Assembly: GCA_944393375.1 (NCBI GenBank)
Contig: CALXZX010000002.1
Location: 15,487 to 79,486, forward strand
Direction of reading: 5' to 3'
From: an uncultured Clostridia bacterium
GTDB lineage: Bacteria; Bacillota; Clostridia; TANB77; CAG-508
Length of the DNA stretch: 64,000 nt
Made by a program: the position numbers and the translations under genes
Part shown: positions 11,663 to 64,000 of the stretch, in pieces
How the letters are laid out: the number at the start of each line of letters is the position of its first letter
Position numbering within the stretch: the stretch's first letter is position 1
Notes under the pieces: model-generated
What the model was told of the DNA's origin: nothing
Seen by the model: the letters and a program-made list of their open reading frames with translations, nothing else
Databases searched by the model: none

Positions 11663-11765
11663 TTGTCATGCTCCCATCTCTATAAAATTTATATTTGCAT
11701 TATAGCACAACAAAGAAAAAAGATAAAGTTTTCTGAATTTAAAACAATAAAAATGAAAAAATCCC

Positions 11766-11960
11766 TAGAGTTTCTTACTCTAAGAATAATTTATATAAAG
11801 ATAATATCAATAAAGTAGTTATATGTCAATAAAAATATTCTTTATTTGTACAACAAATTTTTATATAAAAATGAAAGTTTTTATAATTATAATCTAAAAC
11901 TATAAATCTATAAATGACAATAGTTAGAAAGATATTATCAATTTCTTAGAGTAAGAAACT
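11766..11960. promoter_or_regulatory. Putative invertible promoter (inverton 1) upstream of surface-protein paralog 1
   Basis: IR-L 11769-11786 (agtttcttactctaagaa) is the exact reverse complement of IR-R 11943-11960 (ttcttagagtaagaaact), 18 bp. The enclosed 156 bp carries TTGACA (11829-11824), 17 nt, TATTAT (11806-11801) on the minus strand, facing away from the gene at 12019. Confidence 0.7.
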
Positions 11961-12018
11961 AAAAGAAAATTAAAAATAGTTTCAAAACAAAAGAAAATGC
12001 AGAAAAGAGGGATAAAAA

Positions 12019-13494
12019 ATGAAAAAACACATACAAAAAAGTAAAATGAAAAATCAAAAAGGAATTACATTATTAGTATTAGTTATTACTATAATAATTT
12101 TATTAATCCTAGCAGGAATTACCATAAGTGCGTTAACAGGAGACAATGGAATTATAGAAAATGCAGGAAAGGCAAAAGAAGAAACAGAAATAGCCAATGA
12201 AAAAGAGATAGTAGAAAAGGCAACCGTACAAGCAATGGGGAATAATAAGTATGGAAATATAGAAGAAGATGAATTGCAAAGTGAGTTAGATAAAGAAACA
12301 GGAGAAGGGAAAACAGATGCAACAGATATAGGAAATGAACTTGAAGTAGTATTTATTGATAGTAATCGATATTATGTAGTTGATAAAGATGGAAATGTAG
12401 GAGAAGCACAAGAGATTATAAAAGATAAAAATCCAGGAGATATTACAATAGGAAAAGATGGAGAAACATTAGATGGAAGTGAAGAACATCCATATGAGAT
12501 AAGGTGTATAGAAGATTTAATAGAATGGTCACAACATTATACTAAATATCAGAATAGTAATATTGTCTTATGTAAAGACTTGAATTTTAAATCTTCACTA
12601 TCTTATGCAGATAGTAAAAGTATGGAATATGGAGACATCAATCAAGATAATACAACAGACAGTCTGATTGAGGAGATGCAAAAAGGAATAGGTTTCACAC
12701 CAATAGCAAATTTTTCAGGGATATTTAATGGGAATCATTTTGGAATTCAGAATATTTATATAGTTAATCATGAAAGTGTAGGACTATTTAGTCAAATAGA
12801 TGGAGCTATAATAAGTGATCTAGATATAAGTGGATATATTGAAAGTACAGAAATTACTAGCATTGCTGGTGGAGCTGGTAGCATAGCAGGAAATATAAGT
12901 GAAGGAAGAAATAAAAAAAGTTATATAGAAAATTGTTCAAATAGTGCTACTATAAAAGGTTTTTTAAACCAAAATTATACAGGAATTGGTGGTATAGTAG
13001 GTAAATCTAACGGGGCAGCTAATATAGTAAATTGTAGTAATAGAGGTACAATAATAAGTGAAGTAGGTACAAAAGTTTATATGGGAGAAAACGCAATAGG
13101 TACTGCGGGAATTTTAGGATATACAAGAGGTAATAAGGCTGATGTCAATATATATAACAGTTATAATATAGGAAATGTTTCATCAAATAAATCATCTTGT
13201 GGAATAATGGGAGGTATATGGGCAGAAGGTTCAATTAATATAGAAAATTGTTTTAATATAGGAGAAGCAAAAATAGGGATTTGTAAAAGTGCAAATAGTA
13301 GTAACAGTATTTACTATTTGGATAGTGCAAGTAGCACAGGAGGAATAACAAATGCAGTTCTTATTACAAAAAATGAATTGTGTAGTGAAGAATTTATTAA
13401 TTTATTAAATGATTATATAGAATCAGGAGAAGATTATAAAACTAAATGGAAAAAATGGAAATTAGGAGAAGAAGGATATCCTATAATTGAATAA
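12019..13494 (+). CDS. Surface protein paralog 1: pilin-like N-terminal hydrophobic module plus GLUG-type beta-helix repeats
   Basis: N-terminus KGITLLVLVITIIILLILAGITISALTGDNGII resembles a class III (prepilin) signal but lacks Glu+5. A conserved ~160-aa module ends at PYEIRCIEDL. The C-terminal half has repeated GG(I/L)(V/I)G...N(C/S)xN.G motifs. Confidence 0.85.
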   Translation: MKKHIQKSKMKNQKGITLLVLVITIIILLILAGITISALTGDNGIIENAGKAKEETEIANEKEIVEKATVQAMGNNKYGNIEEDELQSELDKETGEGKTDATDIGNELEVVFIDSNRYYVVDKDGNVGEAQEIIKDKNPGDITIGKDGETLDGSEEHPYEIRCIEDLIEWSQHYTKYQNSNIVLCKDLNFKSSLSYADSKSMEYGDINQDNTTDSLIEEMQKGIGFTPIANFSGIFNGNHFGIQNIYIVNHESVGLFSQIDGAIISDLDISGYIESTEITSIAGGAGSIAGNISEGRNKKSYIENCSNSATIKGFLNQNYTGIGGIVGKSNGAANIVNCSNRGTIISEVGTKVYMGENAIGTAGILGYTRGNKADVNIYNSYNIGNVSSNKSSCGIMGGIWAEGSINIENCFNIGEAKIGICKSANSSNSIYYLDSASSTGGITNAVLITKNELCSEEFINLLNDYIESGEDYKTKWKKWKLGEEGYPIIE

Positions 13495-47360: not shown

Positions 47361-47556
47361 TATTGGCCATTATTCTTATGTATTCGCCTAATTCTTCATC
47401 CGTTAATTCTAATTCTAAAATTAGGTTTTTCAGAACATCTCGTCTAGGTAAATCTTCTTCATTATCAATTCGTATATATTGTCTTAAGCTAATTCCTAGT
47501 ATTTCAGACATTTTTTCTTGTGTATATTTTTTTGCCTTTCTTTTTTCTTTTATCAT
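47350..47556 (-). CDS. XRE family helix-turn-helix transcriptional regulator (68 aa)
   Basis: The YTQEKMSEILGISLRQYIRIDN HTH is typical of Cro/C1-type regulators. Confidence 0.8.
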   Translation of the reverse strand: MIKEKRKAKKYTQEKMSEILGISLRQYIRIDNEEDLPRRDVLKNLILELELTDEELGEYIRIMANKIA

Positions 47557-47615
47557 AACATCACCCTAAACTAATGTTTAAAGTAATTATTACACAAAAG
47601 AAGTAATTGTTGTAT

Positions 47616-47679: not shown

Positions 47680-47874
47680 TTAGAGTTTTTTACTCTAAGA
47701 AAGATTAATATAAGTTAATCATAACAATAAAATAGTGAAATGTCAATAAAATTTAATTGAATAAAATAGTGAATGTTTTAAGGAGAAATAATAAAAATTC
47801 AAAAAATGAAATAGAAGAAAATAAAGTAATATTAATACTTATGGAATTTTCATAATTTCTTAGAGTAAAAAAAT
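47680..47874. promoter_or_regulatory. Putative invertible promoter (inverton 2) upstream of the BspA-LRR paralog
   Basis: IR-L 47686-47702 (ttttttactctaagaaa) is the exact reverse complement of IR-R 47856-47872 (tttcttagagtaaaaaa), 17 bp. The segment carries TTGACA (47746-47741), 17 nt, TATGAT (47723-47718) on the minus strand, facing away from the gene at 47899. Confidence 0.7.
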
Positions 47875-47898: not shown

Positions 47899-50010
47899 AT
47901 GAAAACTAAAGAAAATAGAAAAAATAGGGGAATTACTTTAATTGCCCTAGTTATCACCATTATAGTGTTACTAATTTTAGCAGGAATCACAATAGGAGCG
48001 ATAACAGGAGATAATGGTATTATACAAAATGCATTAAGTGCAAAAGAACAAACAGAAATTGCAAATGAAAGAGAAATTGTAGAAGAAGCAACTGTTCAAG
48101 CCATGGGAAAGAATAAAAGAGGAAACATTGTAAAAGATGAATTGCAAGAAGAATTAGATAAAATAACAGGAGAAGGAAAAACCATTGTAACAGAAGATAA
48201 AGAAGAACTAGGATATTTTGTAAAGTTTGTAGACAGTGGAAGAATCTATAAAGTTAGTATAGATGGAGATGTACAATATTTAGGAAAAGAAAATGAATTA
48301 ATCACACAAGCAGATATTATAGCAAATCCAGAAAGTAATACAACAGCAGAGCTAATACAACAAGTAGATTTAACAGTAAAAACACCAATTGAAATAGAAG
48401 GAGCAGAGTATTCATTAGTATATGCATGGAACCAAGATAAAGAAAATGCACCAGAAGATACAAAATTCTTAGAAACAAACTTAATAGGAGAAGGAAGAAT
48501 CAGAACGACAACGGTATATAGTAGTGATACAGTAGGAGGAGACTATTACTTGTGGGTAAGAATTGTGGTAGGAGATATAGAAAGAGAAGCATGTTTTGGA
48601 CCATATGCAATAAAAGATTATACAACTTTAGTATCTGTTGATTGGAATGGTGGTTTAGCAGAAGGAGGATTTTTAGGAAATAGTGAAGTACCAAGAGGAA
48701 AAATACAAAATATTGATATAATTACATCATTAGAGGGACATAGTGTAGATGATGAAAAAACCTGGGATGTATCAGATGGAAATAAAGGAATGTATTTAGC
48801 ATGGTATGAAGTAAATGAGAATGGATATTATGATGTAACGATTGCAGGAAATGGAGGAATTGTTGCAAATAGTTATTCAACATATTTATTTAAAAATATA
48901 GGTTCTGGTGTGGAAAATCAAGAAGTAACAATAACAGGGTTAGAATATTTAGACACAGGGTTAGTAACGAATATGTATTCAATGTTTGAAAATTGTAAAG
49001 CAGAAGAAATAGATGTGAGCCAATTTAATACAGAAAAAGTTACATCCATGTCATCAATGTTTTCAAGTTGTAGTAATATAGAAAGTTTGAATGTAAGTAA
49101 TTTTAAAACAGAGAATGTAACAAGTATGTATCAGATGTTTGATGGATGTAGTAGTTTAACAGAATTAGATTTAACGAATTTTAATACAAGTAATGTAACG
49201 AATATGGAAGGTATGTTTTTGAACTGTAAAGCAACAAGTATATACTTAAGTGGTTTTGATACAAAAAATGTAGCAAATATGCTAAATATGTTTAATGGTT
49301 GTTCTGTAACAAGCCTGGATGTAAGCCATTTTAACACAAGTAATGTAACAAATATGCAGGGAATGTTTGCTAATTGTAAAGTACAGAGTTTAGATTTAAC
49401 GAGTTTTAATACAAGTAAAGTAACAACTATGTGGACTATGTTTCAAGGGTGTCAAGCAACTAATATTGATGTGAGTAGTTTTGACACGAGTAGTGTATTA
49501 TATATGAGAGAAATGTTTGCATCGTGTAGAGCAACAGATTTAGATTTATCTAATTTTGATACAAGCAATGTAACAAATATGTATAGAATGTTTATGAGTT
49601 GTAGAGCAACAAATATAGATGTAAGCAATTTTGACATAAGTAACGTAACATATACTATGGATGGAATGTTCCGAGATTGTTCAAATTTAGTAAAATTAGA
49701 TGCAAGTAGTTTTACAATGCCCAAAACAACATCTGTAGAGTGGATGTTTGGAGGTTGTCAAAAAATAGAACAAATAGACCTTAAAAATTTTGAGGTAAAG
49801 GAAGGAACCAATATTAATCAGATGTTTTACAACTGCCGAAGTTTAGAAAAATTAGATATTAGAAAATTTGATATAACAAAGACAACTGGATATAGTAATT
49901 ACTGGATATATCCTGTACCAACAACATGTAGTATTATTGTAAATCAAAGCATGAAAGATTGGTTTACAGAAAACCTTCCAAATTATACAAATGTAACAAT
50001 AGGAAATTAG
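47899..50010 (+). CDS. Surface protein paralog 2: pilin-like N-terminal module plus BspA/DUF285-type leucine-rich repeats
   Basis: N-terminus RGITLIALVITIIVLLILAGITIGAITGDNGII is homologous to the other five paralogs. The C-terminal half has about 12 tandem ~24-aa repeats (F(N/D)TSNVTNMxxMFxxCxxxxLDLSN). Confidence 0.88.
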   Translation: MKTKENRKNRGITLIALVITIIVLLILAGITIGAITGDNGIIQNALSAKEQTEIANEREIVEEATVQAMGKNKRGNIVKDELQEELDKITGEGKTIVTEDKEELGYFVKFVDSGRIYKVSIDGDVQYLGKENELITQADIIANPESNTTAELIQQVDLTVKTPIEIEGAEYSLVYAWNQDKENAPEDTKFLETNLIGEGRIRTTTVYSSDTVGGDYYLWVRIVVGDIEREACFGPYAIKDYTTLVSVDWNGGLAEGGFLGNSEVPRGKIQNIDIITSLEGHSVDDEKTWDVSDGNKGMYLAWYEVNENGYYDVTIAGNGGIVANSYSTYLFKNIGSGVENQEVTITGLEYLDTGLVTNMYSMFENCKAEEIDVSQFNTEKVTSMSSMFSSCSNIESLNVSNFKTENVTSMYQMFDGCSSLTELDLTNFNTSNVTNMEGMFLNCKATSIYLSGFDTKNVANMLNMFNGCSVTSLDVSHFNTSNVTNMQGMFANCKVQSLDLTSFNTSKVTTMWTMFQGCQATNIDVSSFDTSSVLYMREMFASCRATDLDLSNFDTSNVTNMYRMFMSCRATNIDVSNFDISNVTYTMDGMFRDCSNLVKLDASSFTMPKTTSVEWMFGGCQKIEQIDLKNFEVKEGTNINQMFYNCRSLEKLDIRKFDITKTTGYSNYWIYPVPTTCSIIVNQSMKDWFTENLPNYTNVTIGN

Positions 50011-52155: not shown

Positions 52156-52199
52156 CAGAAAAAGAAATTAGCAATAATAATGCTAATTTCTTTTTCTGT
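52156..52199 (+). terminator. Strong hairpin after accC
   Basis: Near-perfect ~18-bp arms (one unpaired T) acagaaaaagaaattagca / tgctaatttctttttctgt. Confidence 0.65.
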
Positions 52200-52230
52200 C
52201 TATTGATTTTATCAGCTTTTAACAAAAAAT

Positions 52231-52275
52231 TGACTACTTATCCTAGTTGAAATAAATTGAAAATACATATATAAT
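52231..52275 (+). promoter_or_regulatory. accD promoter with the same upstream conserved motif
   Basis: TGACTACTTATCCTAG (52231-52246) abuts TTGAAA (52247-52252), 17 nt, TATAAT (52270-52275). Confidence 0.55.
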
Positions 52276-52303
52276 AACAAAGATATAAAAGGAGGGAAAT
52301 ACC

Positions 52304-53149
52304 TTGGTAATAGACAAAGTAAAAAAGGTAAACGAAAAGGAAGAAAAGAGAGTCAAGAATGAAAAAGCTTCAGATATGATGATTGGAAAATGGGTAAAAT
52401 GTGATAAATGTAAAGAAATCATCTATAAAGATGATTTACACCAAAATTTGAGTGTATGTCCGAACTGTGGAAAACATTTTAGATTATCATCAAGAAGAAG
52501 AATTAAACAAATTGCAGATGAAGGAACGTTTAAAGAAATTGGTGGAGATATTCACACAAAAGATCCATTAAATTTTAAAGGATATATGAAAAAAGTAGAA
52601 ATGTTAAAAGAAAAAACAAAAATAGAGGAAGCTGTAAAATGTGGTACATGTGAAATAGAAGGAGAAAAAGCAGTTTTGGCTGTTATGGATGGAAACTTTT
52701 TAATGGGAAGTATGGGATCAGCAGTAGGAGAAAGAATTACACTCGCAATTGAAACAGCAGCTAAAAAGAAATTGCCATTAATTATATTCTGTGTATCAGG
52801 TGGTGCTAGAATGCAAGAAGGTATGATATCTCTAATGCAAATGGCGAAAACATCAAGTGCACTTACCAAATTAGATAAAGCAGGACAATTATATATATCT
52901 GTCTTAACAGACCCAACAACAGGTGGTGTAACAGCAAGTTTTGCAAGCTTAGGAGATATCATTTTGGCAGAACCACATGCATTAATTGGATTTGCAGGAC
53001 CAAGGGTTATAGAACAAACGATTAATCAAAAATTACCAGAAGGATTCCAAAGTTCAGAATTTTTGTTAGAACATGGATTTATTGATAAAATAGTAGAAAG
53101 AAAAGATATGAAATCAACAATTGCAAAATTAATCAGACTACACAAATAA
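52304..53149 (+). CDS. accD: Acetyl-CoA carboxylase carboxyltransferase beta subunit
   Basis: TTG start 7 nt after AAGGAGGG. Zn ribbon CDKC...[12 protein letters not shown] motif. Confidence 0.92.
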
Positions 53150-53165
53150 AAAAGGAGGAAGAAAT

Positions 53166-53957
53166 ATGGCGAAAATAACAGCATGGGATAGAGTGATGTT
53201 AGCAAGAAAAATGAATAGACCAAAAGCATTAGACTATATCAATGGACTATTTGATGATTTTATGGAATTACATGGTGACAGAAATTTCGGAGATGATAAA
53301 GCAATTGTTGGGGGAATTGCAACATTTGATGGTATGCCAGTCACTGTAATAGGAGAACAAAAAGGAAAAAAAGCAAAAGAAAATATGGAAAGAAATTTTG
53401 GAATGCCAAATCCAGAAGGATATAGAAAAGCATTACGATTAATGAAACAAGCAGAGAAATTCAATAGACCAATTATCACCTTTATTGATACACCTGGTGC
53501 ATATCCTGGAATGGGAGCAGAAGAAAGAGGTCAAGGTGAAGCAATTGCTAGAAATCTATTTGAGATGTCAAAACTAGAAGTACCAATCATTTGTATTGTT
53601 ATTGGAGAAGGTTCTAGTGGTGGTGCATTGGCAATCGCTGTGGGAGATAGAATTGCTATGTTAGAAAATGCAGTATATTCCATCTTATCACCAGAAGGAT
53701 TTGCTAGTATCTTATATAAAGATTCAAGTAAAGCAAAAGAAGCAGCAGAAGATATGAAGTCTACTGCTAAAGATTTAAAAGATTTTGGAATCATTGACAA
53801 AATTATAAAAGAACCAGAAGGTGGTGCACAAGAAGATATGGAAATGGTTCTAAAAGAATTAAAATCATACATTAAAAAAAGTTTAAAGGAATTAAACACA
53901 TTATCTAAAAAAGAATTAGTAGAAAACAGATATGAAAAATTTAGAACAATGTGTTAA
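53166..53957 (+). CDS. accA: Acetyl-CoA carboxylase carboxyltransferase alpha subunit
   Basis: [30 protein letters not shown] and [10 protein letters not shown] motifs. Confidence 0.95.
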
Positions 53958-54117
53958 GATGGGCACATAATGTAATAAAATTATAGAAAATAATTAATAA
54001 AATAAATACAAGTAACATAAATATTAGAAAAGGACATATACAATAAAAAATCAATGTATATTTTATACAAGGTGTTTTAAATACAAATATAAAAAGTAAA
54101 TAAGGGAGGAATTTAAA

Positions 54118-54888
54118 ATGTTATTAGAAGGTAAAAAAGTAGTAATTATGGGAGTAAGAAACAAATGGAGTATTGCATGGGGAGCAACACAATCAGCTTA
54201 TGAACAAGGAGCAGAAGTTATTTGTACTTGTTCAGCAGATAGTGTAGATAAAGTAAAAGATTTAGTAAAAGATATGCCAAGAGCAAGTGTTTATGTATGT
54301 AATGATGTAAGTAAAGATGAAGATATAGATAAATGCTTAGAAGAAATAAAAAATGATCATGGAAAAATCGATGGATTATTACATGCCATTGCACATGCTA
54401 ACACAGAAGATTTAAGAAATGATTTCATTTTAACATCAAGAGATGGTTATGCACATGCACAAGATGTAAGTGCTTATTCATTAGTTGCTATTGTTAGAAT
54501 GGCAAGAGAAAAAGAAATGTTAAATGAAGGAGCAAGCATTGTTGCATATACATATTATGGATCAGAAAAAGCAATTGAAGGATACAATGTTATGGGAGTT
54601 GCTAAAGCAGCATTAGAAGCAAGCATTAGATATTTGGCAAGAGATTTAGGAAAAGATGGATATAGAATTAATGGAATTTCAGCAGGACCAATCAAAACAT
54701 TATCAGCTAAAGGAATTAAAGACTTTGGTTCAATATTAGATATTGTTGAAGAAAGAGCACCATTACATAAAAATGTTACTATCAATCAAGTTGGAAATGC
54801 TACTGCATTTTTATTTAGTGATATGTCAAGTGCCATTACTGGAGAAATTATTCATGTAGATAATGGTTTCTCAACTGTTGGTGTATAA
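54118..54888 (+). CDS. fabI: Enoyl-[acyl-carrier-protein] reductase (NADH), FabI type
   Basis: GGGAGG RBS. GKK.VIMGV.N..SIAWG start. Catalytic Y-x6-K (YNVMGVAKAAL). 256 aa. Confidence 0.92.
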   Translation: MLLEGKKVVIMGVRNKWSIAWGATQSAYEQGAEVICTCSADSVDKVKDLVKDMPRASVYVCNDVSKDEDIDKCLEEIKNDHGKIDGLLHAIAHANTEDLRNDFILTSRDGYAHAQDVSAYSLVAIVRMAREKEMLNEGASIVAYTYYGSEKAIEGYNVMGVAKAALEASIRYLARDLGKDGYRINGISAGPIKTLSAKGIKDFGSILDIVEERAPLHKNVTINQVGNATAFLFSDMSSAITGEIIHVDNGFSTVGV

Positions 54889-55019
54889 TCTATATATGAA
54901 TGCTATTTGAGAATTTAATAATTTTGATGATTCTAATAGAAAAATTACTTTATATCGAAAAGGTATAGAGTAATTTTTGCTTTTATGATAAAATAAGAAA
55001 AAACTTAGGAGAAAAAGAA

Positions 55020-55439
55020 ATGGTATTATTAAAAATATTAGCAGGATTAATTATTTATATATTGATTTGTGTAATAATTGGATTGATCAAATTTAAAGAA
55101 AAGCCAAAAAAATATATCATGTCAACATTGTCTATGATATTTAATGGCTTTATGGGATTTATGGATACCATATTTTTTATATTATTTTATATGTTTTTTT
55201 CAAATCAACCTAAAGGAAGTGCATATTATGTACCAGAAAGTGAAGAAAGTTTAAATGCAATGATAGGAATGTTTCTTTTAATTGTATATTTGTTAATATT
55301 ACTACCGATTAATATATATATGAAACGAAAAGGAAAAATTAGCACAAAAGTATATATAATAATGAGTGTATTGGCAACATTAGTGGGATTAGGAATTTAT
55401 TGGATTTGGATAGGAACACAATTTACCAAAATATTTTAA
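55020..55439 (+). CDS. Hypothetical small membrane protein
   Basis: Four hydrophobic segments and an AGGAG RBS. No family recognised. Confidence 0.55.
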   Translation: MVLLKILAGLIIYILICVIIGLIKFKEKPKKYIMSTLSMIFNGFMGFMDTIFFILFYMFFSNQPKGSAYYVPESEESLNAMIGMFLLIVYLLILLPINIYMKRKGKISTKVYIIMSVLATLVGLGIYWIWIGTQFTKIF

Positions 55440-55460
55440 TAAAAAACAACTAAAAAAAGT

Positions 55461-55654
55461 CCTAGAGTTAAGTACTCTAGAACTTTTTTAATACCTTGAT
55501 TATACCAATAAATATAATAGATATCAACAAAAAATAGAAAATAAAATGACAAAATTTATTAATTGGAAAATAGAAAATAAAAAAGAACAAAGACAGTAAA
55601 AAGGCTAAATAATGCATAAAATCCAACTTTCTATATTTCTTAGAGTACTTAACT
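55461..55654. promoter_or_regulatory. Putative invertible promoter (inverton 3)
   Basis: IR-L core 55466-55479 (agttaagtactcta) is the exact reverse complement of IR-R 55641-55654 (tagagtacttaact), 14 bp. The flanking GAA/TTC extends it with a 1-nt bulge. The segment carries TTGATA (55527-55522), 17 nt, TATAAT (55504-55499) on the minus strand. Confidence 0.65.
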
Positions 55655-55683
55655 AAAAGAAAGTATAGAAGGGAGAAGATAAA

Positions 55684-57219
55684 ATGCAAAAGATAAGGAA
55701 AGAACAGGGAATTACATTATTAGCATTAGTAATTACTATTATTATATTATTAATCTTAGCAGGAATCACAATAAGTGCTATTACAGGGGACAATGGAATC
55801 ATAGGAAATGCAGGACAAGCAAAAGAGGAAACAGAGATTGCCAATGAAAAAGAAATTATAGAAAAAGCGACTGTACAAGCAATGGGAAATAATAAATATG
55901 GGAACATAGAAGAAAGTGAATTACAAGAACAATTAGATAAAGAAACAGGAGAAGAAAAAACAGAAGTATTAAATGTCGAAGATGAATTTGAAGTTGTATT
56001 TCATGAAAGTAACAGATATTATACAGTAGATAAAGATGGAAATGTACAAGGTGCCTATGAAATCATAGAAGATAAATATCCGGGAGATATTACTGTTGGA
56101 AAAGATGGAGAAACATTATATGGAAGTGAAGAAAAACCATATGAAATCTGGTGTATAGAAGATTTAATGGAATGGTCTAAAAACTATAGTCAATATATGA
56201 ACGCATATATAAAGTTATGTACTAATTTAAACTTTAAATCAGAATTATCATATGCAAATAGTGAAACAAAAGACTATGGAGATGTGAATCAAGATGGAAA
56301 TACAGATAGTTTAATAAAAGAATTACAAAGTAGAGAAGGATTTAAAGCAATACAACAATTTTCAGGTAATTTTGATGGTGATGAAAATATAATCAGTAAT
56401 TTATATATTTCTAAACAGGACAATGCAGGTCTCATCTTATCTTTAAATAATGCTAATTTCAAGAATATTACAATAAAAGGAGAAATATATAGCCAAAGTA
56501 ATAATGCCGGAATTATTTCTCAAGGAGGAAATAGTCAAATTGAAAATATTATAAGTGATGTTAAGATATATGGTGGCGTAGCAGCAGGAATAATAGGAAG
56601 ATGTACAGCTCAATTAAACATAAAGGATTGCGTGAACTTGGGAAATATAGAATCAACGTCAGCAGTAGGTGGAGTTTGTGGAGACCAGTTTACAGGAGAA
56701 ATGTTAAATTGTATAAATGAAGGAACAATAAAATCTAGCGCAAGTGGAAATTATGGTGTAGGAGGATTATGTGGAAATACTGGCAGTAATAATACAGAAA
56801 GTACACAAATAAAAAATTGTATAAATAGTGGAACAATTATATATGATGGAAATAAAAGTGTATGGTATTTTGGTGGAGCAGGTGGAATAACAGGATTAAA
56901 TCGACAAACATTGATTATACAAAACTGTGTGAATACAGGAAAAATACAATCTACCTCTTATGTAGGTGCTATATGTGGAATGGATCTTATATATTGGCAA
57001 AGCCAAGAAACATATGAATTAACCAATTCATTCATGTTAGATAATGTGGAGAGAGTAACAGGAAGTAATAATGCAGAAACAGAAATTACAGTATTTAAAA
57101 TCGAAGATGTTCTAGATGTAGCTACAAGTTTAAATCAATATATAAATAATAATAAATTAACAGAACAAGGTTGGAAATTATGGAAAATAGAAAATGATAA
57201 TAAATTAACATTAGAATAA
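55684..57219 (+). CDS. Surface protein paralog 3: pilin-like N-terminal module plus GLUG-type beta-helix repeats
   Basis: GGGAGAAG RBS. MQKIRKEQGITLLALVITIIILLILAGITISAITGDNGIIGNAG start. Constant module runs to PYEIWCIEDL (55684-56166). C-terminal GG(V/L)CG/AGGITG repeats. Confidence 0.88.
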   Translation: MQKIRKEQGITLLALVITIIILLILAGITISAITGDNGIIGNAGQAKEETEIANEKEIIEKATVQAMGNNKYGNIEESELQEQLDKETGEEKTEVLNVEDEFEVVFHESNRYYTVDKDGNVQGAYEIIEDKYPGDITVGKDGETLYGSEEKPYEIWCIEDLMEWSKNYSQYMNAYIKLCTNLNFKSELSYANSETKDYGDVNQDGNTDSLIKELQSREGFKAIQQFSGNFDGDENIISNLYISKQDNAGLILSLNNANFKNITIKGEIYSQSNNAGIISQGGNSQIENIISDVKIYGGVAAGIIGRCTAQLNIKDCVNLGNIESTSAVGGVCGDQFTGEMLNCINEGTIKSSASGNYGVGGLCGNTGSNNTESTQIKNCINSGTIIYDGNKSVWYFGGAGGITGLNRQTLIIQNCVNTGKIQSTSYVGAICGMDLIYWQSQETYELTNSFMLDNVERVTGSNNAETEITVFKIEDVLDVATSLNQYINNNKLTEQGWKLWKIENDNKLTLE

Positions 57220-57242
57220 AATATATAAAAAATAAAAATAAA

Positions 57243-57445
57243 TTCATTGAGTTAGATACTCAATGAATTTTTTACTAAAAAGATTATACCATAATTGTAA
57301 AGAAAATCAAGCATTTAAAAAGATATTTAATATAATAATTAGTAATTAAAAAAGTAATAAAATAAAATGAAAAGGTAGTTAAAAATGCACATATTTTCAT
57401 AAAAAAAGTCCTTTTTAATTTTCATTAAGTATCTAACTTAATGAA
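57243..57445. promoter_or_regulatory. Putative invertible promoter (inverton 4)
   Basis: The reverse complement of IR-L 57243-57267 (ttcattgagttagatactcaatgaa) matches IR-R 57421-57445 (ttcattaagtatctaacttaatgaa) at 23/25 positions. The loop sequences ttagata and tatctaa are mutual reverse complements. The segment carries TTGATT (57310-57305), 16 nt, TATAAT (57288-57283) on the minus strand. Confidence 0.7.
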
Positions 57446-57464
57446 AAAGAAAGGGGCAAGAAAA

Positions 57465-59066
57465 ATGCAAAAGATAAGGAAAGAACAGGGAATTACACTA
57501 TTAGCATTAGTTATAACCATCATTGTGTTATTAATCTTAGCAGGAATCACAATAAGTGCGATAACAGGAGATAATGGAATCATAGGAAATGCAGGTCAAG
57601 CAAAAGAAGAAACAGAGATTGCCAATGAAAAAGAAATTGTAGAGAAAGCAACTGTACAAGCAATGGGAAATAATAAATATGGGAACATAGAAGAAAGTGA
57701 ATTACAAGAACAGCTAAATAAGGAAACAGAGGAAGGAAAAACAGAAGTATCAGATGTCGAAGATGAATTTGAAGTTGTATTTCATGAAAGTAATAGATAT
57801 TATACAGTAGATAAAGATGGAAATGTACAAGGTGCCTATGAAATCATAGAAGACAAATATCCAGGAGATATCACAGTTGGAAAAGATGGAAATACATTAG
57901 ATGGAAGTGAAGAAAAACCGTATGAGATTTGGTGTATAGAAGATTTATGTGCATTTTCAAACGAAGTAAATAAAGGAACAACATTTTGGAGCAAATATGT
58001 AAAATTAATGAGAAATTTAAATTTTAATTCAAATCTTTCTTATGTAAACGGAAACATATCTGTAGATGGGAATATTCAAAGTTGTCAATCAATCGAGGAA
58101 TTAAAGAAGTTATTAACAGAAAATGAAGGATTTTATCCTATTGGAAATTCATATTCATCAACAGCTGCAATTTTTAGGGGAATTTTTGATGGAAATAATA
58201 AGACTATAAAAAAAATATATATTAATAGACCCAATAATGTGGTAGGATTATTCGGAACAACATCCAATGATACCGATAATAATATTATTATTAAAAATTT
58301 ATCTATTTCTGGAAATATGACCGGAAGTACTGTTGGTAGTATATTTGCTGATGTTAGAACTTATGATAGGGATAATAAAGATTCTTTTATAAAAATTGAA
58401 AATTGCACAAGTGACATAAATATAGAAGGAGATGTGACAGGGGGATTTATTGGAATTAATAATGCTTCTTCTACAGGAAAATTGATTATTGCCAATTGTA
58501 TAAATAATGGAACAATAAATGGCAAAAGTTATGTTGGTGGCATTTTAGGATATAATTATAATAATACTAAAATAATTAACTGTTATAATTCAGGAAACAT
58601 AGAAGGAGAGTCGGATGTAGGAGGAATTGTTGGACATGATGAAAGGCAATCTAATATAATAAATACATATAATTTAGGAAATGTGACATCTAATTCGAAT
58701 GCTGGAGGAATAATAGGCTGGTCAGGATGGGCAGAAAAAAGTATAGAAAATTGTTATAATATGGGAAGAATATCAGGAAGTACTGTAGGTGGAATTATTG
58801 GAGGATTAAATATAAGTAATGAATTGCTAACTACTCAAAATTGTTATTATTTAAATAAAAATATTTCAAAAGGAACTGGAAGTTGGAATGGTGGAGGAGA
58901 ATCTCAAGAAGATATTAATGGTATTTCTGATACTGAAATGAAATCAACTGAAATATTAGAAAAACTCAATAATTATGTAACAGAAAATATAACAATAGAA
59001 GGTGTTGTGTTGAAAAAATGGATAGTAGGAGAGGATGGATATCCAATTTTTGAAAAAAATATATAA
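57465..59066 (+). CDS. Surface protein paralog 4: pilin-like N-terminal module plus GLUG-type beta-helix repeats
   Basis: The ATG at 57465 (after AAAGGGG) aligns with the MQKIRKEQGITLLAL start of paralogs 3 and 6. The track start at 57441 lies inside IR-R. The C-terminal ~110 aa are shared with paralog 5. Confidence 0.88.
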   Translation: MQKIRKEQGITLLALVITIIVLLILAGITISAITGDNGIIGNAGQAKEETEIANEKEIVEKATVQAMGNNKYGNIEESELQEQLNKETEEGKTEVSDVEDEFEVVFHESNRYYTVDKDGNVQGAYEIIEDKYPGDITVGKDGNTLDGSEEKPYEIWCIEDLCAFSNEVNKGTTFWSKYVKLMRNLNFNSNLSYVNGNISVDGNIQSCQSIEELKKLLTENEGFYPIGNSYSSTAAIFRGIFDGNNKTIKKIYINRPNNVVGLFGTTSNDTDNNIIIKNLSISGNMTGSTVGSIFADVRTYDRDNKDSFIKIENCTSDINIEGDVTGGFIGINNASSTGKLIIANCINNGTINGKSYVGGILGYNYNNTKIINCYNSGNIEGESDVGGIVGHDERQSNIINTYNLGNVTSNSNAGGIIGWSGWAEKSIENCYNMGRISGSTVGGIIGGLNISNELLTTQNCYYLNKNISKGTGSWNGGGESQEDINGISDTEMKSTEILEKLNNYVTENITIEGVVLKKWIVGEDGYPIFEKNI

Positions 59067-59074
59067 AAAAATAT

Positions 59075-59276
59075 CGTTAAGTTAATTACTTAACGATTGA
59101 AAACTAAATATATAATACCAATAAAAAATAGTAAAGTCAATAGATAAGGAGAGATATACAAGAAAAGAAAAATAGAATAGAAAACAACAAAAAATGAAAA
59201 GCAGAAATGATTTGTTTTATAGTAAAATCAAATCATTCCTGCTTTTTTATATATACCTTAAGTAATTAACTAAAAG
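59075..59276. promoter_or_regulatory. Putative invertible promoter (inverton 5)
   Basis: The reverse complement of IR-L 59075-59095 (cgttaagttaattacttaacg) matches IR-R 59256-59276 (ccttaagtaattaactaaaag) at 18/21, with a perfect 14-bp core. The segment carries TTGACT (59140-59135), 17 nt, TATTAT (59117-59112) on the minus strand. An internal plus-strand terminator lies at 59201-59248. Confidence 0.7.
59201..59248 (+). terminator. Intrinsic terminator inside inverton 5, just upstream of IR-R
   Basis: gcagaaatgattt / aaatcattcctgc, a 13-bp stem with one mismatch, followed by TTTTTT. Confidence 0.65.
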
Positions 59277-59331
59277 AAAATGAAAAAATGATGAAATACA
59301 TGAGAAAATAAAAAGAAAAGAGGTATAACGT

Positions 59332-60987
59332 ATGAGATTCAAAAGAGAAAACAAACGAGAAGCAGGAATTACATTATTAGCATTAGTTATAACCATCATT
59401 GTATTATTAATATTAGCAGGAATTATAATAAGTGCTATTACAGGGGACAATGGAATCATAGGAAATGCAGGTCAAGCAAAAGAAGAAACAGAGATTGCAA
59501 ATGAAAAAGAAATTGTAGAGAAAGCAACTGTACAAGCAATGGGAAATAATAAATATGGGAACATAGAAGAAAGTGAATTACAAGAACAATTAGATAAAGA
59601 AACGGATACTGGAAAAACAGAAGTATCAGATGTGGAAGATGAATTTGAAGTTGTATTTCATGAAAGTAACAGATATTACACAGTAGATAAAGATGGAAAT
59701 GTAGATGGTGCCTATGAAATTATAGAAGATAAACATCCAGGAGATATTACGCTTGGAAAAGATGGAGAAACATTAGATGGAAGTGAAGAAAAACCATATG
59801 AGATTTGGTGTATAGAAGACTTAGTAGCTTTTTCGAATATGGTAAATGGAGAAGGGATTAGGTTAGAAAATGGCGAGCCCAAACAAATAAGAAGTACAAA
59901 TAGTTTTTCTTTAAAATATGTTGTTTTAAAAACAAATCTTAATTTTAAATCAAAATTATCATATCAAAATAGTGAAAGAACGGACTTTGGAGATATTAAT
60001 GGAAATGAAAATGATGGAAATACATTGATGAATGAAATGACAACAGAAAATGGATTTAAACCAATAGGAATGGTTGAAAATACAGGCTTCGGTGGTGTTT
60101 TTGATGGTCAAAATTATTGGATAAAAGAAATGTATATCCATAGAGAAGATAGAGGAGTAGGTCTATTTACTAAAATAGACAATGTAAATAGTGTAGTTAT
60201 AAAAAATTTGAGAATATCAGGAGAAATGGCAGGAAACTCTGGCGGAGGTGTAGTAGGGACGGTATCTTTGGTTTTTAGAGGGAACAATATAATGATACAA
60301 AATTGTATAAATTATGTAAATATTAAAACTACGGTTTCGGCAGGAGGAATTGTTGGCAGTCGTGGATCTGGTGGATCAGATAAGACTTTAATGATTGCTG
60401 ATTGTATAAACTATGGAGAAATTGAAGGACAAAATTTCTCGGGTGGAATTATTGGACTAGCATATGAAACTACAAAAATTATTAATTGCTGTAATATAGG
60501 AAAAATAGTAAGTAAAGATAAAAATGAAGCATATGGAGGAGCGGGTGGAATTATTGGAACTAGTATGTTTAAAGTTAATATTATTAATGCATATAATTTT
60601 GGAAATGTAGAAGCTGAAAAAAATGCAGGAGGTATTTTAGGATATTCTTATTGGGCAGAAAAGAGTATAGAAAATTGTTATAATATAGGGAAAATATCAG
60701 GAGATACTGTAGGTGGAATTATAGGAACATTGACACTAAGTAATGAATTGTTAGCAACACAAAACTGTTACTATTTAAACACAAATATTTCAAAAGGATT
60801 TGGTAGTTGGAATTCTAGTGCAGAAGCATTAGAAGATGTACAAGGTCTTACAGATACAGAAATGAAATCAACGGAAGTATTAGAGAAACTCAATAATTAT
60901 GTAACAGAGAATATAACAATGGAAGGTATTGTATTGAAAAAATGGATAGTAGGAGAGGATGGATATCCTGGATTTGATAATAACTAA
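59332..60987 (+). CDS. Surface protein paralog 5: pilin-like N-terminal module plus GLUG-type beta-helix repeats
   Basis: AGAGG RBS. MRFKRENKREAGITLLALVITIIVLLILAGIIISAITGDNGII start. Constant module to PYEIWCIEDL (ends 59823). GG(I/V)(I/V)G...NC(Y/I)N.G repeats. Confidence 0.88.
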   Translation: MRFKRENKREAGITLLALVITIIVLLILAGIIISAITGDNGIIGNAGQAKEETEIANEKEIVEKATVQAMGNNKYGNIEESELQEQLDKETDTGKTEVSDVEDEFEVVFHESNRYYTVDKDGNVDGAYEIIEDKHPGDITLGKDGETLDGSEEKPYEIWCIEDLVAFSNMVNGEGIRLENGEPKQIRSTNSFSLKYVVLKTNLNFKSKLSYQNSERTDFGDINGNENDGNTLMNEMTTENGFKPIGMVENTGFGGVFDGQNYWIKEMYIHREDRGVGLFTKIDNVNSVVIKNLRISGEMAGNSGGGVVGTVSLVFRGNNIMIQNCINYVNIKTTVSAGGIVGSRGSGGSDKTLMIADCINYGEIEGQNFSGGIIGLAYETTKIINCCNIGKIVSKDKNEAYGGAGGIIGTSMFKVNIINAYNFGNVEAEKNAGGILGYSYWAEKSIENCYNIGKISGDTVGGIIGTLTLSNELLATQNCYYLNTNISKGFGSWNSSAEALEDVQGLTDTEMKSTEVLEKLNNYVTENITMEGIVLKKWIVGEDGYPGFDNN

Positions 60988-61054
60988 TCATAAAGTTAAA
61001 ATTTAAATTACTCAATAGAAAATATATTTGTTAAATTAATGAATTAAATATTGC

Positions 61055-61106
61055 AAAATCTCTAATTGTGTTGTAAAATAATGGAAATGCAATTAGAGAT
61101 TTTTTT
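61055..61106 (+). terminator. Rho-independent terminator after paralog 5
   Basis: 14-bp stem aaaatctctaattg / caattagagatttt followed by a T-run. Confidence 0.7.
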
Positions 61107-61440
61107 GTTTTATTCATAAAGTTTTATTGTTAATTAAAAAAGAGTTTTGTTTAATGAGATTTATATCAAAAAATTAAAAAAATAAATAATCTAACGATTC
61201 AAGTATTTTTAAAATGTTAAAAAGTATTAATAAAATTATTTTTCAAAAATTATTTTGTGATTTAAATAGAGTTTAATTCTGAAGTTTTAAATTTGTATTT
61301 GTTGATTTTTTATATCTGAATTTATATCTGAAACATTCCAGTTTTTATATATTTATTTTTCATGTAAAAAATAAATGGTAATTGTTGTGAGTACAAAATA
61401 TCTCTAATGTATTTATAGATAAAGAAAAGTCAACTTTTTG

Positions 61441-61469
61441 TTGAATATGCAATAAAAATTTGATAGAAT
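61441..61469 (+). promoter_or_regulatory. Sigma-A-type promoter of the Rpn-like gene
   Basis: TTGAAT (61441-61446), 17 nt, TAGAAT (61464-61469). AAAGGAG RBS before the ATG at 61485. Confidence 0.55.
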
Positions 61470-61484
61470 GAAAGGAGAAGATAA

Positions 61485-62369
61485 ATGAGTAATTTAAACA
61501 AATTAAAAGAAGTAGATATGCTACCATTATCAAATGATTATGTATTCAAAAGAATATTTGGAAAAGGTGGAAATGAAAGAATATTAAAAAGCTTACTAGA
61601 AGCAATTTTAAAAATTAGTATACAAAAAATAGAAGTAAAAAATCCGGAAATACCAAAAGAAGCAATTGATGAAAAATTAAGCATCTTAGATATCAAAGCA
61701 GAAATAAATGAAAATACCATTATAGATGTTGAATTACAAGTAGGAAATACAACGGCCTTAGAAAGAAGATTAGTAGTATATAATGCAAAACTAATAGCAG
61801 GAGAAATAAAAGTATCAGAAAAATATCAAAAGGCAAAAGATACAATTGTGATATGTATTATAAATGATAATGTTGTAAGACGAAATGCATATTTAAGTTT
61901 AGCCATGTTAAAATATGAAAAAACAGAAGAAATCAGATATGTCAATATGGGATATGGAAAAGAAGAAGAATATTTAACAGACATGGTAAAATACTATATC
62001 ATAGAATTACCAAAGTTTAAGAAAAAGAAACCAAAGGTAGCAGATTTACTAGAAAAATGGTTATATGTGATTGGGGGAGATAGAAAAATGATGGAAGAAT
62101 GCAAAAAAGAAAATGAAGAAATCAAAGAAGCAGTAGAACAATTAACACAAATGAGTGCAGATGAATACGAAAGAGAACTATATGAAATTAGGGAAAGAAG
62201 TAGATTAACTTATAACACAGAAATGTATGAAGCAAGAAGGAAAGGATTAGAAGAAGGGAAGACTGAAGAAAGAAAAGAAATTGCTAAGAAAATGAAAGAA
62301 AAAGGTACAGATATTACATATATAATCGAGATAACAGGTTTAACTGAAGAAGAAATTAAAGCATTGTAA
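61485..62369 (+). CDS. Rpn / PD-(D/E)XK (PDDEXK_2, TIGR01784 'putative transposase or invertase') family nuclease
   Basis: N-terminal L..SNDYVFKRIFG motif. D...E.Q nuclease core (LSILDIKAEINENTIIDVELQ). Charged helical C-terminus ending in an HTH-like KGTDITYIIEITGLTEEEIKAL, as is typical of this family. Confidence 0.75.
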   Translation: MSNLNKLKEVDMLPLSNDYVFKRIFGKGGNERILKSLLEAILKISIQKIEVKNPEIPKEAIDEKLSILDIKAEINENTIIDVELQVGNTTALERRLVVYNAKLIAGEIKVSEKYQKAKDTIVICIINDNVVRRNAYLSLAMLKYEKTEEIRYVNMGYGKEEEYLTDMVKYYIIELPKFKKKKPKVADLLEKWLYVIGGDRKMMEECKKENEEIKEAVEQLTQMSADEYERELYEIRERSRLTYNTEMYEARRKGLEEGKTEERKEIAKKMKEKGTDITYIIEITGLTEEEIKAL

Positions 62370-62418
62370 TTTATTTATAAGTATCATTAAAGAAATAATT
62401 TTTCAGAACATAAAAAAT

Positions 62419-62618
62419 CGTTAAGTCAGATACTTAACGATATAAAACTAAAAATATAATATCAATAAAAAATAGTAAAGTCAATAGATAGAAAGAATGA
62501 AAATAAAGAATTAAAATTCATAAAGAAAATAAAAAACAAAAAGTAGAAAAAACTTGTAATAGTGTTACAATAAGTAATTTCTGCTTTTTTCTTTTTACCT
62601 TAAGTATCTGACTTAATG
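62419..62618. promoter_or_regulatory. Putative invertible promoter (inverton 6)
   Basis: The reverse complement of IR-L 62419-62439 (cgttaagtcagatacttaacg) matches IR-R 62598-62618 (ccttaagtatctgacttaatg) at 19/21, with a perfect 17-bp core. The segment carries TTGACT (62484-62479), 17 nt, TATTAT (62461-62456) on the minus strand. An internal terminator-like hairpin plus T-run lies at 62542-62590. Confidence 0.7.
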
Positions 62619-62640
62619 AAAAAGGAAAGGAGTAGGAAAA

Positions 62641-64000
62641 ATGCAAAAGATAAGGAAAGAACAAGGAATTACACTATTAGCATTAGTTATAACCATCATT
62701 GTATTATTAATATTAGCAGGAATTACAATAAGTGCGATAACAGGAGATAATGGAATCATAGGAAATGCAGGTAAAGCAAAAGAAGAAACAGAGATTGCAA
62801 ATGAAAAAGAAATTGTAGAGAAAGCAACTGTACAAGTAATGGGAAATAATAAATATGGGAACATAGAAGAAAGTGAATTACAAGAACAATTAGATAAAGA
62901 AACGGATACTGGAAAAACAGAAGTATCAGATGTCGGAGATGAATTTGAAGTTGTATTTCATGAAAGTAATCGATACTATACAGTAGATAAAGATGGAAAT
63001 GTAGAAGGTGCTTATGAAATTGTAGAAGATGAATATCCAGGAGATATTACAGTTGGAAAAGATGGAGAGACATTAGATGGAAGCGAAGGAAAACCATATG
63101 AGATTTGGTGTATAGAAGATTTAGTAGAATGGTCACAAAATTATAGAAACTATCAAAATTCTTATATAGAATTGAAAAGAACATTAAATTTTAAATCAAG
63201 ATTGTCTTATATAAACGGAAAAATGTTAAATTGCAATTCAATAGAAGAATTAAGAAATTTATTAACAAATACTTCTGGAAGTGGATTTACACCAATTACT
63301 AATTTTTATGGTACTTTTGATGGGAAGAACTTTGAAATACAAAATATTTATGAAAATGTATCAGGAAAAGCAGGTTTTTTTGCAGATGCTGCTGGGACAA
63401 TAAAAAATTTAAAAATATCGGGAAATATTATTTCAAATGATGGATATGCGGGTGGAATTGTAAGTAATTTAGGAGAAACATTAAACATTAGTAACTGCAT
63501 TAATTACTGTAACGTTACTGCAAATGCAGAAATACATACCAATCCTGGTAATGTTGATGTTCGTGGAACTGCAGGAGGAATTGTAGGAAAATGTGTAGGA
63601 AATGTTATCATTAAGGATTGTGCAAATGAAGGAAATATATATGGAACAAATGAAACGGGAGGAATAGTAGGATTTCAATATGTTTCTAATATCACAATTT
63701 TAAATTGTTATAATGATGGAATGATAAATGGGGAAAGTGATACAGGAGGAATCATTGGTAGAACATTGGCATCAACTGTGCAAATATATAATTGTTATAA
63801 CATAGGAAATATTTCTGGAAGTGTTACTGGAGGATTAATGGGAAATAGAGGTTCTAATGATAAAATAGAGATAAAAAATTGTTATAATTATTCAGAAATT
63901 AAAGGAAGTAAATATCAAGGAGAAATTATTGGATTTAATTGGGCATATGATACAGAAACATCTCCTACAATAGAAAATGTATTTTATACAAATCAAACAA
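62641..64000 (+). CDS. Surface protein paralog 6 (partial, runs off the window end): pilin-like N-terminal module plus GLUG-type beta-helix repeats
   Basis: ATG at 62641 after AAAGGAG. MQKIRKEQGITLLALVITIIVLLILAGITISAITGDNGII start. The frame stays open to base 64000. It is absent from the ORF track only because no stop falls within the window. Confidence 0.85.
   Translation, partial: MQKIRKEQGITLLALVITIIVLLILAGITISAITGDNGIIGNAGKAKEETEIANEKEIVEKATVQVMGNNKYGNIEESELQEQLDKETDTGKTEVSDVGDEFEVVFHESNRYYTVDKDGNVEGAYEIVEDEYPGDITVGKDGETLDGSEGKPYEIWCIEDLVEWSQNYRNYQNSYIELKRTLNFKSRLSYINGKMLNCNSIEELRNLLTNTSGSGFTPITNFYGTFDGKNFEIQNIYENVSGKAGFFADAAGTIKNLKISGNIISNDGYAGGIVSNLGETLNISNCINYCNVTANAEIHTNPGNVDVRGTAGGIVGKCVGNVIIKDCANEGNIYGTNETGGIVGFQYVSNITILNCYNDGMINGESDTGGIIGRTLASTVQIYNCYNIGNISGSVTGGLMGNRGSNDKIEIKNCYNYSEIKGSKYQGEIIGFNWAYDTETSPTIENVFYTNQT

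Follow-up and report, generated by a model that had tools for sequence, protein, structure and literature searches.

Probable invertible promoters upstream of a mosaic family of putative surface-protein genes in uncultured gut Clostridia

In Bacteroides fragilis, capsular-polysaccharide and surface-protein loci carry invertons (invertible promoters), and the recombinases known from this organism are Mpi, of the serine type, and the Tsr enzymes, of the tyrosine type. Mpi is the best-known global regulator of many invertons. The switches of Clostridioides difficile have unrelated repeats, and several of them act after transcription has started, cwpV through formation of a terminator and flgB through Rho. 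Mechanistic studies of multi-locus invertons have mostly been made in Bacteroides and C. difficile. Inversion in B. fragilis is reportedly the subject of studies by Coyne (2003) and Weinacht (2004), which appear in the reference lists of related papers. Three papers on C. difficile describe a single tyrosine recombinase, RecV, that flips several short segments (cwpV, flgB, cmrRST, and pdcB; PMC2784873, PMC7446863, PMC9286219), and a paper on the Mycoplasma Vpma, Vsa, and Vsp proteins describes a surface-protein family with a conserved N-terminus under a tyrosine recombinase of the Xer1 type (PMC2268961). This study concerns a 64,000-nucleotide (64-kb) stretch of DNA from an uncultured gut Clostridium (assembly GCA_944393375.1, contig CALXZX010000002.1, positions 15,487 to 79,486), called the window below and used for all coordinates unless another locus is named. 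The first-pass annotation of this DNA had reported four tandem same-strand paralogs, here called the array, and two dispersed copies; all six plus-strand open reading frames (ORFs) are present and are lettered A to F in order of start position (Table 1). It is very probable that every one of these genes is controlled by a separate invertible promoter, which is the best explanation of the evidence set out here.

Recombination sites, predicted promoters, and orientations

Two sites of the form half-site/AGT-N5-ACT/half-site lie before each family gene, with their cores 178-181 bp apart and the pair 30-66 nt from the start codon. The arms of each site are inverted and 8-11 nt long, giving a whole site of approximately 27 bp with the full arm-spacer-arm structure typical of targets of site-specific recombinases. 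At all six loci the right-site N5 is the reverse complement of the left-site N5, and no two loci have the same spacer (TTCTT, TTTTT, TAAGT, TAGAT, TAATT, CAGAT). As these spacers are asymmetric, the two sites of a locus stand in inverted orientation. Run on the window, a purpose-built site-pair detector returned the six pairs and no others, and 300 random windows of matched composition gave no pair at all; 11 of the 22 AGT-N5-ACT words in the window are parts of switches. The inverted repeats that had been claimed to bracket a segment upstream of each gene were found at six of six loci, with lengths of 14-35 nt in the array. Equally well founded was the claim of one promoter per segment, near the left repeat and facing away from the gene: on the minus strand of each segment a single match to TTGAnn-16/17-TAnnnT lies at a distance of 21-23 nt from the left core, and all six of these predicted promoters face away from their genes (the OFF state) in the window.

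Both orientations are found in nature for three of the six switches. Other public assemblies were searched for contigs encoding identical neighboring proteins, and the orientation of each switch was then compared. (Loci from these and other assemblies are given L numbers.) The first-pass annotation had proposed that the family is controlled by invertible promoters and had suggested read mapping as a check; run on independent assemblies of the same species as the equivalent of read mapping, the check revealed flips at loci C, E, and F. Locus C is flipped, with exact breakpoints, in two independent assemblies (L080 and L083; ERZ16268126 scaffold_3824 and BRZ_Q NODE_28006), where the flanks are identical at 303/303 and at 300/300 or 295/300 positions and the segment matches at 173/173 positions as its reverse complement. 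The flipped locus C presents TTGATA-17-TATAAT on the plus strand, 22 nt from the right site, and approximately nine further contigs carry this locus in the window orientation. Locus F is flipped in L094, from a Logan assembly, where the left flank agrees at 83/83 positions and the reverse-complemented segment at 168/174. Locus E is flipped in L103, whose contig starts inside the segment. In other species, the locus C orthologue L010 has the flipped orientation, with flanks of 92-94% identity and a segment that is 84% identical when reverse-complemented but 57% when read forward, and the L003 switch is also ON. The flipped copies come from separate samples and pipelines (ERZ16268126, BRZ_Q, BRZ_PB, and Logan SRR34436985).

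The same design recurs in relatives. A scan of one genome per species yielded 140 stretches encoding relatives of the N-terminal module of the family, and 79 loci were kept, belonging to about two dozen uncultured Clostridia bins from gut samples, whose names suggest chicken and a "BRZ" series. When all fetched loci were pooled, 70 distinct switches of this design were counted upstream of homologues in about 15 related bins, 64 with the predicted promoter directed away from the gene (OFF) and six toward it (ON). Their spacing has its mode at 177-181 bp, and they carry 28 different spacers. A promoter match is present in 70/70, a TG-extended -10 in 69/70, and the -10 ends 21-23 nt from the site in 65/70. 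Among the sampled bins, a spacer is shared in four of 117 within-genome switch pairs; sharing amounts to 3.4% within and 4.7% between genomes, a comparison that is confounded by orthology and from which no conclusion is drawn.

The left site is always a near-perfect palindrome between an A-run and a T-run. At switch C it is a predicted intrinsic terminator on the minus strand (Table 1), and on the plus strand, downstream of the preceding gene, it also forms a hairpin with a T-run. The same terminator-like behavior is shown by the left sites of D (57240-57270), E (59073-59097), and F (62417-62441). A terminator scan of positions 55000-63000 detected five terminator-like hairpins, against 1.0 expected, all of which are left sites. 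On folding, the left-site hairpins have free energies of -18.6, -14.8, -10.8, and -10.4 kcal/mol (z -5.2 to -2.6), and the leader seen at locus C in its ON form has no stable structure (-3.8 kcal/mol, z 0.6). Nothing was found in an Rfam search of the window, and the leaders are therefore not accounted for by a riboswitch or any other known RNA.

In the mechanism proposed here, a recombinase supplied in trans would pair the two approximately 27-bp sites of one locus, and strand exchange within the AGT-N5-ACT core would flip the segment of approximately 170 bp. In the OFF state the promoter would point away from the gene and its transcript would meet the palindromic left site within about 20 nt, where the hairpin and U-run would stop the RNA at about 45 nt, with no antisense transcription into the upstream gene. 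The same left-site hairpin would also end transcription of that upstream gene. In the ON state the promoter would lie 21-22 nt from the right site, and transcription would pass through it because its outer arm is degenerate (ACTAAAAG...) or has A's, not U's, after it; a leader of about 75 nt with a ribosome-binding site would then precede the gene. Since each gene has its own promoter cassette, any combination of genes could be ON, and a population would present changing combinations of surface proteins.

Some neighboring features touch individual switches. Within the segment of switch E, near its right site, a hairpin with a 22-bp stem (91% complementary) is followed by T's (59197-59246) and could serve as an extra terminator against read-through from gene D. 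A small gene for a helix-turn-helix (HTH) regulator of the XRE type (47370-47576, minus strand) lies between spoIIIAH and switch B and faces away from the switch. The predicted OFF-state promoter of switch B faces this HTH gene, with the left-site hairpin and T-run standing between them.

At 14 of the 79 related loci the contig ends less than 600 bp upstream of the family gene, and in six of these within 180 bp (L002, L003, L008, L014, L018, L033, L034, L039, L047, L050, L054, L070, L078, and L079; L103 is a further case). Mixed switch orientation may break metagenome assemblies at these places; the repeated N-terminal module is an alternative cause of the contig ends.

The gene family and its products

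The window has a G+C content of 27.95%, and its contents include housekeeping genes and the spoIIIA sporulation operon. On the full contig, fabI and a gene for a 139-residue membrane protein border the array at one end, and ileS at the opposite end. The six products have a 165-residue N-terminal module in common, with protein identities to D of 91-93% for C-F, 77% for A, and 59% for B. The description of the family as mosaic in the first-pass annotation agrees with the DNA of genes C-F, which is mostly 87-98% identical in the first approximately 450 nt and approximately 45-55% identical beyond; between D and E similarity returns, at 77-85% over the final approximately 270 nt. Array content and alleles vary by strain: L082 is without the body of gene C, L084 has the D switch joined to an E-like body, and L115 contains other alleles. 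At E <= 1e-5, 3423 database proteins match the family, which is without a name.

The AlphaFold model of D (80 homologues; predicted local distance difference test score, pLDDT, 90.6) begins with a membrane helix at the N-terminus, continues with two helices and a four-stranded sheet that form a small alpha/beta module, and ends in a long beta-helix. Foldseek matches of the beta-helix include the GLUG-type domain of BACOVA_03286 (PDB entry 3N6Z, E 1.2e-9) and the streptococcal and Gemella IgA1 proteases (PDB entries 7UVK and 6XJB). Only D passes the cut-off of the Pfam GLUG family PF07581 (25.2 bits, cut-off 20.5); GLUG repeats are seen in the alignment of A, C, E, and F, yet these proteins give no Pfam match.

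The products had also been called pilin-like, and here only the hydrophobic leader stood. The leader, G-ITLLALVITIIVLLILAG, resembles a class III signal peptide. Glu is absent at position +5 of the mature protein, where the alignment shows Ala for five of the paralogues and Val for gene A. The Pfam N_methyl family matches gene B only, at 18.2 bits and under the cut-off of 21.2, and NCBIfam gives no prepilin-domain match for C or D. A model of residues 1-172 (pLDDT 80.5) has its helix interrupted at TGDNG, and the best Foldseek match of the N-terminal module against the PDB has an E value of 0.38, with no pilin among the 50 matches listed. No prepilin peptidase or pilus-assembly genes were recognized among the window ORFs, inspected by eye and, for ten ORFs, with Pfam. 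Beyond the leader, the pilin label was rejected because of the missing +5 Glu, the lack of an above-threshold N_methyl match, and the lack of a pilin among the listed fold matches. The products are best described as putative surface proteins, anchored at the N-terminus, in which a constant stalk bears variable heads made of a beta-helix (GLUG) or of PARCEL repeats.

A sortase gene and a small gene for an LPNTG-anchored protein lie just upstream of the family gene and inverton in L005 (1520-2651). Distant proteins encoded beside family genes in L035 (295-1764), L038, L055, and L069 have a leader of the type GITxLALVITIIVLLILAG and a different post-leader module; the leader may be common to a wider superfamily. 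Homologues of the Rpn-family gene located between genes E and F (Table 1) adjoin family genes at seven of the 79 related loci (L021 and six others). This nuclease gene was considered as a player in the switch and set aside, as Rpn proteins are not known to be site-specific recombinases.

Table 1. Positions of family genes, switches, inverted repeats, and predicted regulatory elements in the window
Feature	Position	Strand	Description
Family gene A	12019..13494	+	491 aa; constant N-terminal module, then GLUG-like repeat C-terminus
Family gene B	47899..50010	+	703 aa; constant N-terminal module, then DUF285/PARCEL-repeat C-terminus; PF03382 E 3.5e-66; TIGR02167 E 9.9e-78
Family gene C	55684..57219	+	511 aa
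Family gene D	57465..59066	+	533 aa; ribosome-binding site before 57465; ATG at 57441 inside right site
Family gene E	59332..60987	+	551 aa
Family gene F	62641..64000	+	cut by window end; 510 aa on full contig, ileS next
Switch A	11769..11960		left core AGTttcttACT 11769-11779; right core AGTaagaaACT 11950-11960; OFF
Switch B	47684..47874		left core AGTtttttACT 47684-47694; right core 47864-47874 degenerate (AGTaaaaaAAT); OFF
Switch C	55466..55654		left core AGTtaagtACT 55466-55476; right core AGTacttaACT 55644-55654; OFF here
Switch D	57250..57438		cores AGTtagatACT 57250-57260, AGTatctaACT 57428-57438; OFF
Switch E	59080..59271		cores AGTtaattACT 59080-59090, AGTaattaACT 59261-59271; OFF here
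Switch F	62424..62613		cores AGTcagatACT 62424-62434, AGTatctgACT 62603-62613; OFF here
Inverted-repeat pair, locus C	55466-55479/55641-55654		14 nt, 100%
Inverted-repeat pair, locus D	57243-57267/57421-57445		25 nt, 92%
Inverted-repeat pair, locus E	59074-59093/59258-59277		20 nt, 90%
Inverted-repeat pair, locus F	62418-62452/62585-62619		35 nt, 77%
Predicted promoter of switch A	-35 11829-11824, -10 11806-11801	-	TTGACA-17-TATTAT
Predicted promoter of switch B	47746-47718	-	TTGACA-17-TATGAT
Predicted promoter of switch C	55527-55499	-	TTGATA-17-TATAAT, TG extension
Predicted promoter of switch D	57310-57283	-	TTGATT-16-TATAAT
Predicted promoter of switch E	59140-59112	-	TTGACT-17-TATTAT
Predicted promoter of switch F	62484-62456	-	TTGACT-17-TATTAT
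Switch C left site as intrinsic terminator	55453..55489	-	16-bp stem, then U-run; predicted
Rpn-family PD-(D/E)XK nuclease / putative transposase gene	61485..62369	+	between genes E and F; PF12784 E 3.9e-44; TIGR01784

A candidate recombinase, a cassette deletion, and alternative explanations

One invertase common to all loci is plausible. No recombinase gene lies directly downstream of the array, a position occupied by ileS. The flanks of the 79 homologous loci yielded a single recombinase, a tyrosine recombinase of about 310 residues, revealed by ORF clustering; in the 726 kb around family genes, searched by tblastn with this candidate and Hin as probes, it is the sole recombinase detected and no Hin-like gene was found. 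The candidate matches PF00589 (E 3.7e-33, residues 119-301 of the frame-corrected protein) and contains the motifs TGLRIGE, HVLRHTF, and LNRYVH, corresponding to the Arg ... His-x-x-Arg ... Tyr pattern. Its best NCBIfam matches are XerA and XerC, with scores so far below the cut-offs that it is not an orthologue of either, and the NCBIfam "tyrosine-type DNA invertase" models match it weakly (E 3.7e-8, far below the cut-off). The chance that this Xer-like tyrosine recombinase flips the switches is put at slightly under even.

In L005, L035, and L125-L132 the candidate gene follows a family gene at a distance of approximately 190 nt, and the inverton of that family gene is visible in L005, L035, L125, and L126. 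L035 belongs to the same bin as L004, in which locus C is 97-98% identical to the window. In relatives L117-L122 the gene directly follows murT, the position of locus A in the window (window 10346-12019 compared with L117/L118). In the human-gut relative L135 (accC-accD-accA-fabI-recombinase) it directly follows fabI, the position of the array (window 50812-55684). A poly-T tract lies at the conserved FFLTG motif of the candidate gene (L005:5625-5650, L035:4775-4800, L117:6670-6685). With T9 (L117 and L118) the protein is intact at 310 residues; with T10 (L005 and L035) it is truncated to 235 residues, and a separate C-terminal ORF holds the HxxR and Tyr motifs. The close database homologues comprise 11 full-length clusters (P0001-P0011) and 11 truncated ones (P0012-P0016, P0021, P0030, P0034, P0041, P0042, and P0049). 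The invertase could be under slipped-strand or transcriptional-slippage control.

Just upstream of the recombinase gene in L117 (5690-5890), a perfect 26-bp inverted repeat (GTCAAGTCGGTTTTGCCTGCTAAGCA) surrounds about 110 bp. This repeat of the L117 lineage is absent from L005, and the segment could be a further invertible element or a small mobile insert.

Two independent assemblies contain a hybrid left site (L084, 1455-1590, and L085; window equivalents 55466 and 57250) that follows the left flank of C up to AGTCCTAGAGTTA and the left site of D from GAGTTAGAT on, with an outer arm from switch C and both the spacer and the inner arm from switch D. The crossover must lie within the 6 bp GAGTTA, where arm and spacer meet, and switch C and gene C, together 1784 bp, are missing. 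A 6-bp crossover at this place is the mark of a site-specific enzyme acting there, and the sequence of the joint points to a site-specific cassette deletion; it has the look of an excision or insertion event. It is interesting to speculate, given this joint, the strain-variable content of the array, and the recombinase at the murT and fabI positions in relatives, that the family resembles an integron in being built of mobile cassettes, each with a private inverton, under a recombinase that is itself phase-variable, and that the same sites flip promoters and excise or insert cassettes. This dual role is rather improbable. Were it true, the locus-specific 5-nt spacers would make the sites heterospecific and keep a dozen switches independent, and the poly-T tract (T9 full, T10 truncated) would gate the recombinase as a switch over switches. 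An integron as such was rejected: the cassettes hold their own promoters and no recombinase lies beside the array; one site-specific cassette-deletion joint exists.

Several observations weigh against control by invertible promoters and a common recombinase. Switch D is OFF in every copy from other assemblies that covers it (seven loci, two of which are the same contig), B is OFF in all seven loci from other assemblies, and A is OFF in the sole other contig covering it (L096). Promoter-like words are no more frequent than chance predicts for DNA so rich in AT (61 found vs 58 expected), so that the motif alone proves nothing; the weight of the matches comes from their position and conservation. 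A recombinase gene was not found in the window, either by reading the ORF translations or by tblastn with the candidate and Hin. The candidate is tied to the sites by adjacency only, and its gene is frameshifted (T10) in many assemblies. None of 80 metagenome loci with homologues of the recombinase has a family gene or site pair in its flanks, the closest two (95% and 79% identity) being on short contigs, and linkage beyond the close clade is not supported. Some of these points would suit an explanation in which the repeats are terminator or leader hairpins inherited with gene duplications, without inversion and with fixed promoters: the left sites all look like good intrinsic terminators, all the switches of the window point the same way, and the promoter consensus is not enriched in the region. 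This explanation is already contradicted by the occurrence of both orientations with identical flanks and exact reverse-complement segments, and a spacer that is always reverse-complemented between the two sites would be needless for a hairpin; its probability is next to nil. That the flipped copies are assembly artefacts at inverted repeats is scarcely more credible. Metagenome assemblers can mis-join at repeats, and several contigs end in or near switches. However, the perfect repeats are only 14-17 bp, and 14 bp at locus C, whereas assembler k-mers would normally be longer than this. As the repeats are shorter than the expected k-mers and several studies show flips, the flips are not attributed to assembly; the ON copies come from independent samples and pipelines, and the L010 orthologue is flipped despite 16% divergence inside the segment.

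Recombination between N-terminal modules, by cassette swapping or gene conversion, might instead be the main source of variation, with inversion playing a minor part. The sharp drop in identity after approximately 450 nt, the 3' end common to D and E, and the strain-variable array (L082, L084, and L115) are all to be expected from such exchange. It would, however, operate on an evolutionary timescale and is compatible with inverton control, not an alternative to it, and orientation differs between otherwise identical contigs; as the principal cause it is unlikely. Retaining invertible promoters as the preferred reading, the switches may still be flipped by a serine invertase of the Hin or Mpi type, or by another recombinase encoded elsewhere in the genome, a serious possibility that falls somewhat short of an even chance. 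The window is without a recombinase gene, the candidate is linked by adjacency and its metagenome homologues are unlinked, and Mpi, a regulator of many invertons, is a serine recombinase encoded away from its targets. On the other side, arms around an odd, homology-matched spacer fit tyrosine recombinases better than serine invertases (the Xer dif site has an 11+6+11 arrangement), and a 5-nt spacer that is matched between partners and varies from locus to locus suits the homology-dependent overlap of a tyrosine enzyme better than it suits a crossover at 2 central bp. Two further points speak against another enzyme: the L084 joint falls where arm and spacer meet, and no Hin-like gene was found in the 726 kb around family genes.

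Comparison with described inversion systems

For uncultured, spore-forming Clostridia of the gut, the window and its relatives provide a culture-independent example of probable inverton control on a large scale, in which the inversion is verified. With more than 70 switches of one design, in which a site is a recombination target and, by prediction, a terminator, the family is a good natural model for asking how one recombinase can serve many independent switches, and how surface repertoires serve colonization or the evasion of immunity or phages. For annotation, family genes look silent in consensus assemblies, and the switches may break metagenome contigs.

The logic of the switch is that of the B. 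fragilis invertons, the C. difficile RecV switches, and fimS. As in B. fragilis, there are many dispersed loci, each with a private invertible promoter between related inverted repeats; the recombinase presumably acts in trans, and the outcome would be combinatorial surface variation in a gut commensal. Unlike B. fragilis, the host is a spore-forming uncultured Clostridium, and the targets are single genes of one paralogous family, not polysaccharide operons. The sites also differ in being full palindromic arm-spacer-arm units with locus-specific spacers, of which the left one appears to double as a terminator, and the recombinase, in contrast to Mpi, is probably of the tyrosine type.

The likeness to the RecV switches, compared by description only, lies in a Firmicute host, segments bounded by inverted repeats upstream of surface or signaling genes, and, presumably, an enzyme encoded elsewhere. 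In contrast to C. difficile, a stereotyped cassette of approximately 180 bp holds the predicted promoter itself, and at least six such cassettes per genome stand in front of paralogues. The fimS element of Escherichia coli (FimB/FimE) similarly places a promoter in a short invertible element that tyrosine recombinases turn to switch a surface structure ON or OFF. However, fimS is a single 314-bp switch with adjacent recombinase genes, whereas here there are many switches, no recombinase beside the array, and another site design.

With Mycoplasma the family has in common a multigene variable surface repertoire with a conserved N-terminus and, in gene B, PARCEL/DUF285 repeats of the Mycoplasma type. 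There, one promoter moves among genes through inversions at identical sites that lie inside the genes, whereas here each gene has its own promoter cassette. Promoter shuffling of the Mycoplasma type, or a shufflon, was rejected on the grounds that every gene has its own promoter and site pair and that the six spacers are all different. Relative to all these systems, what is new here is the host group, the target family, the putatively bifunctional recombination site and terminator, the locus-specific spacers, and possibly a slippage-gated recombinase.

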